Position numbers and translations under genes: made by a program. Positions 15,792 to 20,252 of a DNA stretch of 32,253 bases are shown piece after piece; position 1 is the first letter of the stretch, and each line of letters starts with the position of its first letter. Origin of the DNA: a virus; IMG/VR virus record IMGVR_UViG_3300009499_000172. The stretch is one strand, 5' to 3'. Below the pieces are notes generated by a model. The model worked only from the letters and a program-made list of their open reading frames with translations. It made no database searches and was not told the origin of the DNA.

Positions 15792-15839
15792 TTTTGGTTG
15801 GTATGACACATGTTTTATGATGCATCATACCAACCAAAA
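15792..15839 (-). terminator. candidate intrinsic terminator: 15-bp perfect stem (TTTTGGTTGGTATGA / TCATACCAACCAAAA), 18-nt loop, then UUUGUUGU on the minus strand
   Basis: It sits 10 nt downstream of the TGA (15849-15851) of the secreted delta-60 protein gene, the last gene of the MVP transcription unit. Confidence 0.5.
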
Positions 15840-15848
15840 CATCACTCA

Positions 15849-17393
15849 TCAGTTGTGGTGTCCGCTACCACCGATGAACAGCTCATTGATCGAGTTCGTT
15901 ACAACGAGTAGGTTGTCAATGGCCGGATTTGTGCAACCGGTGATTGGAAACAGCCTGACTCCGTTCGAGCCCCACGTTGTATCAACAGCACCCGTCGTCA
16001 AAAAACGTTGCGTTCTAACGCTTCCCGTCAAAAGACCGGCCGGGTCCTGCATCACAACAACGGGCTTACCGTTCGTAAGCACGACAGCATCAGCGATGAG
16101 AGCCCTATCTGTGGTCAGCATGTTATCAACAAGCACGAGTCCATTTGAGCCGAACGTCGTGTCGAACGTCCCATTAGAGTTGAATGCAACGATAAATCCA
16201 CGAGGAGCACGCAGAAGAGGCGTCGCAGCAGCGCTGTTAGCGACGGTGCCGACCACATAAAACCCACCAGCAGTACCCTTACGAAGGATTTTCGTCACCT
16301 TGATGGCATCAAAGATGCCGGTATCACCGTCGGTCGACAGCAATGAATTGATGGCCGGCCAGGCTAACAATCCACCATTAACGACCTTAAGCGAACCAGA
16401 ATCAGCAACACGCATGACCATCAACGACATTCCGTTTCGACCACCAATCTGTGATGACTTAAACTCAGCCTGGCCCGCAATCAGGTAGCCTGCACCGGTG
16501 ATGGGAAGCCCGGTCTGTGAGGTGTCAGTCAACACCGTCAATGTATGAGCCCTTTCACTCACTGGCAAGCTCTGTCCAAATGGAACAGCATCTCTGTCTG
16601 TGAGAAACATCGAGTTAAACGTCACATCATCCGCGTAGTTTGTATTCGTAAACGTATTCTCAATCTTCGTACGTTGTAGATACGTCTTGAATCGAGGATT
16701 GGGAATCTGACACACACCTGTGCACGTGTTGATGCTATGACCAAGCGCGACGATGTTTCCAAATGACCGAAACGGAACAAACGTTGGACCGACAGTGACA
16801 GGGTCATTATAGAGCCCGTCAGATGTGTACGTCATGTTTGACCCACCCGTAACAATCGGATTCGGCAACGTCCGCGTGTTAACAACACTAAATGTACACA
16901 TACCGGTTGCATTCGATTGGTCGAACGTACGACTGATGACCTGGTTCGCTGTTGGAGGTTGGTCAATGAACGGCAAGCCGAGTGTATGCACGATAATTGG
17001 ACCATAATTGTAGCTTGAGTTATTAACAAACGCAACCTGACCGACGTCAGTGTATGCTTGTGGAGGAGTATTATATGCTGTACACTGCAATGTGACGCCT
17101 CCCGTCGTCCATGTGCGCCTGTTAAGCGACGTGTGATTAATGCTAGCCTGTTGCTCATCACAGGAAGCCCAGATGCGATTATCAACGGCGTCAAAGATTT
17201 GAGATCGCATTGGAGCATAAGTACCAGCGATGTTCCACCCAGTCACCTCTGACCCGGCGGAAGAGATTCTCTTCTCAAATAGAGTCGGCGTTGATAACCA
17301 TGTCGAACAATCAATCGCATGCGCAGGAAATGCAGCACACGTAGAAACGCAGATGACGACCATCAACAAAATACGAAACATATCTTTTAACAT
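15849..17393 (-). CDS. secreted protein with C-terminal delta-60 (beta-propeller-type) repeats
   Basis: Likely start MLKDMFRILLMVVICVSTCAAFPAHA (signal peptide; AAGGAG 5 nt upstream of the ATG at 17391-17393). The ORF track extends to 17492. Repeats such as NSNGTFDTTFGSNGLVLVDN and GAVDTTWGSNGVRLFP match the delta-60 repeat signature. Confidence 0.55.
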   Translation of the reverse strand: MLKDMFRILLMVVICVSTCAAFPAHAIDCSTWLSTPTLFEKRISSAGSEVTGWNIAGTYAPMRSQIFDAVDNRIWASCDEQQASINHTSLNRRTWTTGGVTLQCTAYNTPPQAYTDVGQVAFVNNSSYNYGPIIVHTLGLPFIDQPPTANQVISRTFDQSNATGMCTFSVVNTRTLPNPIVTGGSNMTYTSDGLYNDPVTVGPTFVPFRSFGNIVALGHSINTCTGVCQIPNPRFKTYLQRTKIENTFTNTNYADDVTFNSMFLTDRDAVPFGQSLPVSERAHTLTVLTDTSQTGLPITGAGYLIAGQAEFKSSQIGGRNGMSLMVMRVADSGSLKVVNGGLLAWPAINSLLSTDGDTGIFDAIKVTKILRKGTAGGFYVVGTVANSAAATPLLRAPRGFIVAFNSNGTFDTTFGSNGLVLVDNMLTTDRALIADAVVLTNGKPVVVMQDPAGLLTGSVRTQRFLTTGAVDTTWGSNGVRLFPITGCTNPAIDNLLVVTNSINELFIGGSGHHN

Positions 17394-20155: not shown

Positions 20156-20222
20156 TAGTATCTTCCTTTATTGTTGGTGCGTAAATTGCTCGTTCGTGTC
20201 ATCATCATGACCAAACGCTATG

Positions 20223-20252
20223 ATTATCTCACGGTTGCATCGTTGATTTCAA
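20223..20252 (-). promoter_or_regulatory. candidate sigma70-like promoter for the MVP gene (TTGAAA-N18-GATAAT)
   Basis: Minus strand TTGAAATCAACGATGCAACCGTGAGATAAT, about 65 nt upstream of the MVP ATG. The -35 hexamer overlaps the stop of the upstream gene. Confidence 0.35.

Follow-up and report, generated by a model that had tools for sequence, protein, structure and literature searches.

In the vault particle, the protein MVP occurs together with the minor components TEP1, PARP4, and vault RNA. Homologues of MVP have been described in bacteria (bioRxiv 10.1101/872010), and two MVPs of phages have already been described (bioRxiv 10.1101/2023.11.10.566534). The present analysis concerns the MVP gene of the IMG/VR virus record IMGVR_UViG_3300009499_000172, a stretch of 32,253 nucleotides (nt) that is referred to below as the window, and the gene for a 514-amino-acid (514-aa), predicted exported protein that follows it. 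Analysis of positions 15,792 to 20,252 leads us to favor, with moderate confidence, a stand-alone MVP unit and a later, moron-like add-on gene, which lies behind the MVP terminator and would be expressed by transcriptional read-through of that terminator. The layout of the transcription unit is itself ordinary phage gene organization. The sole parts that may be new are how widely MVP occurs among large phages and its autonomy as a terminator-flanked gene.

The minus strand carries every gene from 14.5 to 28 kb of the window, the MVP gene and the 514-aa gene among them. The MVP gene (positions 17492 to 20155, minus strand) encodes a protein of 887 aa, and reading of the sequence revealed a Shine-Dalgarno (SD)-like element, AAAGGAAG (20162 to 20169, minus strand), 6 nt 5' of its ATG. 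Searching the MVP product against Pfam revealed the domains MVP_shoulder (PF11978) at residues 551 to 659 (E value, 1.8e-18; 67.1 bits against a cutoff of 25) and Vault_3 (PF17795) (E value, 3e-8; 34 bits against a cutoff of 28.8). In a phmmer search, rat and human MVP matched the phage protein over residues 507 to 809 (E value, 1.6e-9). A structural model generated with AlphaFold2 (AF2) from an input of 48 homologues (predicted local distance difference test [pLDDT], 70) showed beta repeats in its N-terminal part, followed by a shoulder and by a long helix (residues 661 to 820, about 160 residues). Superposition of this model on the full-length rabbit, human, and rat MVP chains by Foldseek gave E values of 1e-27 to 1e-23 over 860 to 1,000 columns, and its beta-repeat region matched the murine R1-R7 crystal structures (E value, 7e-10); global TM-scores were low because the chain is elongated. 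The structural alignment showed the phage MVP to be only about 17% identical to mammalian MVP. A total of 2,882 homologues of the window MVP were retrieved, and its identity to Myxococcota proteins that the sources label MVP is 44 to 51%. The assignment of the 887-aa product as an MVP homologue, predicted from sequence and model, is sound because Pfam, phmmer, and the Foldseek comparison of the AF2 model agree.

The window protein resembles the MVPs of eukaryotes and bacteria in length and domain order (beta repeats, SPFH-like shoulder, and long helix) but differs in being encoded by a large phage. No match to TROVE, WD40, PARP, or vault RNA was obtained in the window, so that no TEP1-, PARP4-, or vault-RNA-like neighbor was found and the minor components of the vault particle have no counterpart among the matches there. 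A PHROGs search returned nothing for MVP or for the 514-aa protein, megablast found nothing matching the region among the phages of GenBank, and scans of GTDB genomes with the 514-aa protein and close MVP relatives gave no pointer to the host.

A profile search of IMG/VR with the MVP clade revealed MVP relatives on 256 viral contigs. Many of these 256 contigs are 100 to 480 kb long; among the best 80, 43 are at least 100 kb and 10 are at least 200 kb long. MVP was also detected by tblastn in three "huge phage" GenBank records (LR756500, LR756501, and LR756503). In the literature library searched, no paper linked MVP with jumbo or huge phages, and a single preprint, the one on two phage MVPs, dealt with MVP in phages. 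In IMG/VR, 81 loci (L013 to L093) were examined; the counts obtained from IMG/VR were made with a crude open reading frame (ORF) caller and include some near-duplicate loci. A hairpin (energy of -10 kcal/mol or lower) with a T-rich tail was located within 60 nt 3' of MVP at 60 of 77 IMG/VR loci (78%), compared to 146 of 936 other ORFs of at least 100 aa (16%) (odds ratio, 19; Fisher P value, 4e-30). MVP is thus flanked by a terminator about five times as often as its neighbors are, which suggests that it acts alone and is made in quantity. The intergenic gaps beside MVP are about twice as long as those of other genes, and the search for a conserved neighbor found no protein family common to more than 10 of 86 loci. 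Phage MVP thus behaves as an autonomous unit without a conserved partner gene because terminators are enriched behind it, the flanking gaps are long, and a common neighbor family is missing from these loci. Clear gene boundaries are therefore available for cloning and expressing phage MVP to test for vault cages in bacterial viruses.

Behind the MVP gene of the window, RNAfold and covariation analysis revealed a 51-nt stem-loop, designated T1 (17430 to 17480, minus strand). T1 begins 11 nt past the MVP stop codon, and its interrupted stem has 22 pairs and two internal mismatches. The energy of T1 is -36.1 kcal/mol (z score, -5.9 against shuffles), and in a sliding scan it was the most stable 60-nt fold of the coding strand in the 32-kb window (mean, -12.2; standard deviation, 4.5). 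The all-GC 7-bp stem noted here in a preliminary description of the window is merely the core of this longer hairpin. That description had also placed a U-rich tract directly after the stem. The hairpin itself is borne out, but the tail (17429 to 17420, minus strand), UGUUUAAUGU, has 6 U in 10 positions, is interrupted and only moderately U-rich, and drew no call from a consensus terminator scanner. The pairing of T1 is conserved: all 88 of 88 pair cells are standard in four sequences, four pairs show compensatory double changes, none of 500 shuffles reached the observed pairing, and slid registers paired only 23 to 59% of cells.

Terminator-like hairpins were found at the position of T1 in five relatives, L005, L006, L094, L095, and L096, whose MVPs are 57 to 66% identical to that of the window. 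The hairpin of L005, GGGCGGGGAC-TTCA-GTCCCCGCCC, is followed by the tail ATTTGCTGTTTTT, that of L006, GGGCGGCGACCC-AATTCT-GGGTCGCCGCCC, by GTTTTTCTT, and that of L094 by TTTTTCTTTTTG, each a clear T-run; the hairpins of L095 and L096 have long stems with shorter and weaker T-tails. With a simple T-tail score, which follows the scheme of d'Aubenton-Carafa, the tail of T1 scored 2.4, compared to 1.25 to 5.3 in the relatives. Since terminator-like hairpins occupy the same position in relatives, T1 is the predicted ancestral MVP terminator and not a special attenuator. Leakiness of T1 is plausible. T1 resembles the intrinsic terminators behind highly expressed phage genes in its GC-cored hairpin at the stop codon and its T-containing tail, as well as in a position that is kept across relatives and in the strong enrichment of such elements after MVP. 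It differs from them by its unusual length, with 22 pairs interrupted by two mismatches, and by its interrupted U-tail.

Upstream of MVP, a sigma-70-type promoter-like site with the sequence TTGAAA-N18-GATAAT (20223 to 20252, minus strand) was identified by a scanner (score, 10/12) and by comparison with L007. The site corresponds to the promoter that the preliminary description had proposed, and it ends 67 nt 5' of the MVP ATG (20155). Its -35 hexamer TTGAAA (20252 to 20247, minus strand) overlaps the TGA stop codon of the upstream Pyr_excise gene, and the putative extended -10 element consists of GATAAT (20228 to 20223, minus strand) and a TG (20231 to 20230) two bases before it. The extended -10 element and the likely transcription start region lie in a 22-nt block, TGAGATAATCATAGCGTTTGGT (20210 to 20231, minus strand). 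The N18 spacer falls within the 16 to 18 nt of sigma-70 promoters. By itself, such a site is not above chance, since 12 promoter-like sites were observed in 8 kb, compared to 8.3 +/- 2.9 expected, and the number over the whole window is likewise close to chance expectation. Support for the promoter comes instead from the comparison with L007, the only informative relative, whose MVP is 94% identical to that of the window. In L007, CCTTGAAA is kept, with the -35 hexamer matching at 6 of 6 positions, and the block formed by TGAGATAAT and the 13 following nt, which is the 22-nt block named above, is identical at 22 of 22. The spacer between them matches at only 3 of 15 positions (12 of 15 bases differ), and past the 22-nt block the 5' untranslated region has diverged, with a 16-nt indel. 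Conserved hexamers around a diverged spacer are what one would expect to see at an extended -10 promoter, and the footprint of this candidate is thus retained in L007. A role of the extended -10 block as a recurring phage-specific promoter motif was considered and rejected, because a search of the window returned the original site only, along with one chance-level match.

The gene for the 514-aa protein (15849 to 17393, minus strand) was delimited by its ORF, its SD sequence, and its homologues. AAGGAG is located 5 nt 5' of the ATG. An alternative 547-aa version of the ORF, starting from 17492, was rejected because it crosses T1 and has no SD sequence; gene callers and homologues start at AAGGAG-N5-ATG. 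Heuristics and conservation predict a signal peptide in residues 1 to 26 (17316 to 17393, minus strand), in agreement with the earlier expectation of a signal-peptide-bearing downstream protein. The N terminus reads MLKDMFR, a charged n-region, followed by a 15-residue hydrophobic core, ILLMVVICVSTCAAF, which is the sole hydrophobic segment of the protein, and by PAHA|ID. These n- and h-regions and the AXA site are conserved in three lineages, and the homologues P0122 (ASA|LDCSTW) and P0133 (GHA|ESCSSW) share both the AXA site and the x-C-S-x-W that comes after it. A lipoprotein signal peptide was rejected, as there is no lipobox (T at -1 before C19) and an AXA cleavage motif is present. In the mature protein, seven cysteines are invariant among the three close sequences, those of the window, P0121, and P0122. 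The signal peptide, the AXA motif, and the seven conserved cysteines point to predicted Sec export into an oxidizing compartment.

The 514-aa protein had also been described as a delta-60-repeat protein. Only two FGxNG-type repeats are recognizable, at residues 400 to 490 or thereabouts, a region that matched many PF17164 proteins in a profile search, with E values down to 1e-20. Membership in the family was not upheld, as both curated cutoffs were missed (TIGR02608 [delta-60], 29.8 bits against 76.5; PF17164 [DUF5122], 13 bits against 27). The protein resembles the delta-60/DUF5122 beta-propeller proteins, which are mostly secreted bacterial proteins, in its two repeats and its predicted secretion; it differs from them in scoring under both cutoffs and in having no type IX secretion system sorting tail. 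AF2 gave a poor model of the 514-aa protein (pLDDT, 47.9), in which the first 200 residues stayed unmodelled. The C-terminal part of the model is rich in beta strands, and its Foldseek matches are generic beta-propellers of low confidence. A family-profile scan found no WD40/TEP1 signature in the protein. The N-terminal 350 residues have relatives confined to three phage-like lineages.

The 514-aa gene is flanked by two further hairpins. The small hairpin H2 (17403 to 17422, minus strand) is part of the minimum free energy fold calculated by RNAfold, and the 3' end of its stem overlaps the AAGGAG sequence by one base, the first A. H2 is retained with base changes in L001 and L011, and L007 forms a hairpin at the same spot from a different sequence (ATCCC..GGGAT versus TCACGC..GCGTGA); because aligning the window with L007 leaves H2 out of register, these two were compared by eye. 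Downstream, a hairpin of 21 pairs followed by UUGUUGU, designated T2 (15791 to 15840, minus strand), was identified by RNAfold, the scanner, and covariation. The scanner called it at 15839 to 15792 (minus strand), with 20 pairs and the tail TTTGTTGT, as its top match in the window. T2 begins 9 nt past the stop codon of the 514-aa gene. Its pairing is kept in 96% of cells with four compensatory pairs, a level reached by 1 of 500 shuffles, and in L007 T2 ends in a canonical T-run, TTTTTTGTTTTG. The stem and U-tract that had been reported after the downstream gene are thus present, and their pairing is conserved with covariation. The accompanying scheme of a weak attenuator followed by a strong terminator does not hold, since T2, with -28.5 kcal/mol (z score, -6.9 by RNAfold), is the 8th most stable fold of the window and less stable than T1, and the T-tails of the two score alike. 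Further stable coding-strand hairpins are located at or near gene boundaries on the minus strand at 24374 to 24433 (-31.5 kcal/mol), 9849 to 9908 (-31.1 kcal/mol), and 20634 to 20693 (-30.7 kcal/mol). The hairpin at 20643 to 20682 has a TTGGTTGG / CCAACCAA core in common with T2.

A search of 5.8 billion proteins found only three full-length relatives of the 514-aa protein: P0121 (96% identity to the window protein), P0122 (62% identity), and the distant P0133 (E value, 2e-24 over residues 159 to 513). The 514-aa gene is situated behind MVP in the window, in the near-identical strains L001 to L004, L011, and L012, and in L007, all with MVPs at least 94% identical; the short contigs L008 to L010 carry an L007-type 514-aa gene and no MVP. 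In the five relatives with MVPs of 57 to 66% identity (L005, L006, and L094 to L096), the gene is absent after MVP. It is likewise absent after MVP in all 81 IMG/VR loci, and tblastn found none in the other fetched loci. In L005, L006, and L095, a homologue of the 129-aa gene of the window and a conserved P-loop ATPase gene come immediately after MVP and its terminator, and in L094 and L096 other genes stand after MVP. The 514-aa protein is 62% identical between the window and L007, compared to 94% for MVP, 96% for the ATPase, and 93% for AAA_5; between the window and L011 the corresponding values are 94.9% for the 514-aa protein and 99.8% for MVP. The G+C content at third codon positions (GC3) is 0.52 in the 514-aa gene and 0.65 in MVP. 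Gain of the 514-aa gene in one sub-lineage is the parsimonious explanation suggested by this distribution. The distant relative P0133 is encoded at positions 5343 to 6788 of contig L097 and shares the signal peptide and the C-S-x-W motif. This contig is phage-like, and its PHROG matches are to a homing endonuclease and a tRNA-synthetase-like protein. Within the 12.8 kb examined of its 13.1 kb, no MVP was found near P0133.

Morons are accessory genes that have entered phage genomes between conserved genes and that classically, in lambdoid phages, come with a promoter and a terminator of their own. Like them, the 514-aa gene is restricted to a lineage, lies between conserved genes, has its own terminator, differs in GC3, evolves faster, and encodes a product that is apparently aimed at the envelope. 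It differs from them in that it has no convincing promoter of its own and stands directly behind the terminator of another gene, and its carrier is probably a large lytic-type phage rather than a lambdoid prophage.

According to the reading that we favor, MVP would be transcribed from an extended -10 promoter of the host sigma-70 type, located about 67 nt 5' of its start codon, and most of these transcripts would end at T1. In the sub-lineage of the window, a cassette consisting of H2, a strong SD sequence, the 514-aa gene, and T2 would have entered between T1 and the conserved gene that comes next. The 514-aa gene would be expressed by partial read-through of T1, so that less of its product would be made than of MVP. 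Read-through would be the most likely route because no promoter is recognizable between T1 and the SD sequence and because the tail of T1 is only moderately U-rich. The 514-aa product would be exported across the cytoplasmic membrane and would act in the cell envelope, for example in surface masking or modification, and not inside a vault; we infer an envelope-directed accessory role. A bolder extension, which we regard as unlikely, would be that MVP is a stand-alone and presumably heavily expressed gene of hundreds of large and huge phages that builds vault-like cages inside infected bacteria, and that in this lineage the MVP terminator has turned into a long duplex metering read-through into a newly acquired exported beta-propeller protein.

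Several observations weigh against the favored reading. The covariation comes from only three independent lineages, and T-tail scores overlap between lineages with and without the 514-aa gene. The -35 hexamer of the putative MVP promoter owes part of its conservation to the stop codon that it overlaps, that of the pyrimidine-dimer glycosylase gene upstream. The SD sequence of the 514-aa gene is stronger than that of MVP, and the level of its protein need not be low. Export is predicted from signal-peptide heuristics, and gain rather than loss of the gene is argued by parsimony only. T1 is also very stable and could terminate transcription efficiently, in which case the 514-aa gene would need a promoter of its own, and a weak candidate promoter, TTGTGT-16-TTTAAT (8/12), coincides in part with the tail of T1 and the 3' arm of its stem. 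In a rival arrangement of two single-gene units, T1 would terminate MVP transcription efficiently, the 514-aa gene would be transcribed from its own weak promoter over the T1 3' arm and tail, and H2 would protect the 5' end of the mRNA. T1 as the most stable hairpin of the window fits this arrangement, as do the -10-like TTTAAT (TTTGAT in L007) located 0 to 1 nt before H2 and the preservation of H2 as a structure despite a differing sequence; morons, moreover, usually bring their own promoter. The best candidate promoter nevertheless scores only 8/12 and was not called by the scanner, its -35 would fall within the GC-rich stem, and it is not conserved in L007, which has no acceptable -35. We consider two separate units rather unlikely.

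T1 might instead be mainly an element of RNA processing or stability, such as an RNase III site, at which a two-gene transcript would be cut, so that the MVP message would keep a 3' hairpin and the downstream message would decay faster. The stem of T1, a nearly perfect duplex of 22 to 24 pairs, has a length sufficient for RNase III. T1 is conserved through covariation, and in the window, L001, and L007 it has a weak U-tail. In the relatives L005, L006, and L094, which do not have the add-on gene, the corresponding site has a short GC stem of the ordinary kind with a T-run, so that termination is probably the ancestral role of the site; processing as the main function of T1 is graded as improbable. 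Least probable of all is a functional pair of MVP and a beta-propeller protein comparable to MVP and TEP1, co-transcribed with a stoichiometry set by an attenuator, as the preliminary description had implied. Wherever a genome has both genes, they are same-strand neighbors separated by nothing but a hairpin, and the C-terminal part of the 514-aa protein resembles a beta-propeller. Against such a pair, the 514-aa gene is absent from related genomes that keep MVP, both the five relatives with 57 to 66% MVP identity and the IMG/VR MVP loci, an absence that the preliminary description itself had named as a refuting outcome, and P0133 is encoded on a contig without MVP in the examined stretch. The predicted signal peptide and the seven cysteines indicate a place outside the cytoplasm, away from a cytoplasmic cage, the 514-aa protein diverges far faster than MVP, and it has no WD40/TEP1 signature. 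A role of the 514-aa protein as a vault partner is very unlikely. The gene pair is not a vault module, and the 514-aa protein is thus not usable to infer vault function.

The P-loop ATPase gene (14510 to 15382, minus strand) encodes a protein with weak nSTAND/AAA_16 matches that is 96% identical to that of L007 and 60 to 67% identical to those of L005 and L006. Where it is present (the window, L005, L006, L007, and L095), it is the second gene after MVP, or the third if the 514-aa gene intervenes. Because it is as conserved as MVP, the ATPase is the better candidate for a functional link to MVP than the exported protein.

Farther downstream (10574 to 14421, minus strand), an 824-aa gene and a 458-aa gene have GC3 values of 0.385 and 0.25, compared to 0.5 to 0.65 in their neighbors, and the 458-aa gene has methyltransferase-like PHROG matches. 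The pair is absent from L007 and L011, which have a reverse-strand gene of 218 to 249 aa instead. It looks like a strain-specific foreign insertion, possibly linked to defense or anti-defense. Upstream of MVP (22713 to 27967, minus strand), the window contains a conserved block of genes encoding a MopE-like protein (647 aa), an AAA_5/MoxR-like ATPase (388 aa), and a DUF2201/VWA-like protein (583 aa). This block is present in the window, L005, and L007, and only parts of it were found in L006, L011, L094, and L096. Near the start of the window, a tRNA-Leu(TAA) gene (260 to 341), a 71-aa IF1/eIF-1a-like ORF (2029 to 2244), and a Peptidase_M50-like ORF (2643 to 3281) are located on the minus strand; the Pfam labels of the two ORFs are those of their homologues in L007 and L011. 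All three genes are typical of large phages.

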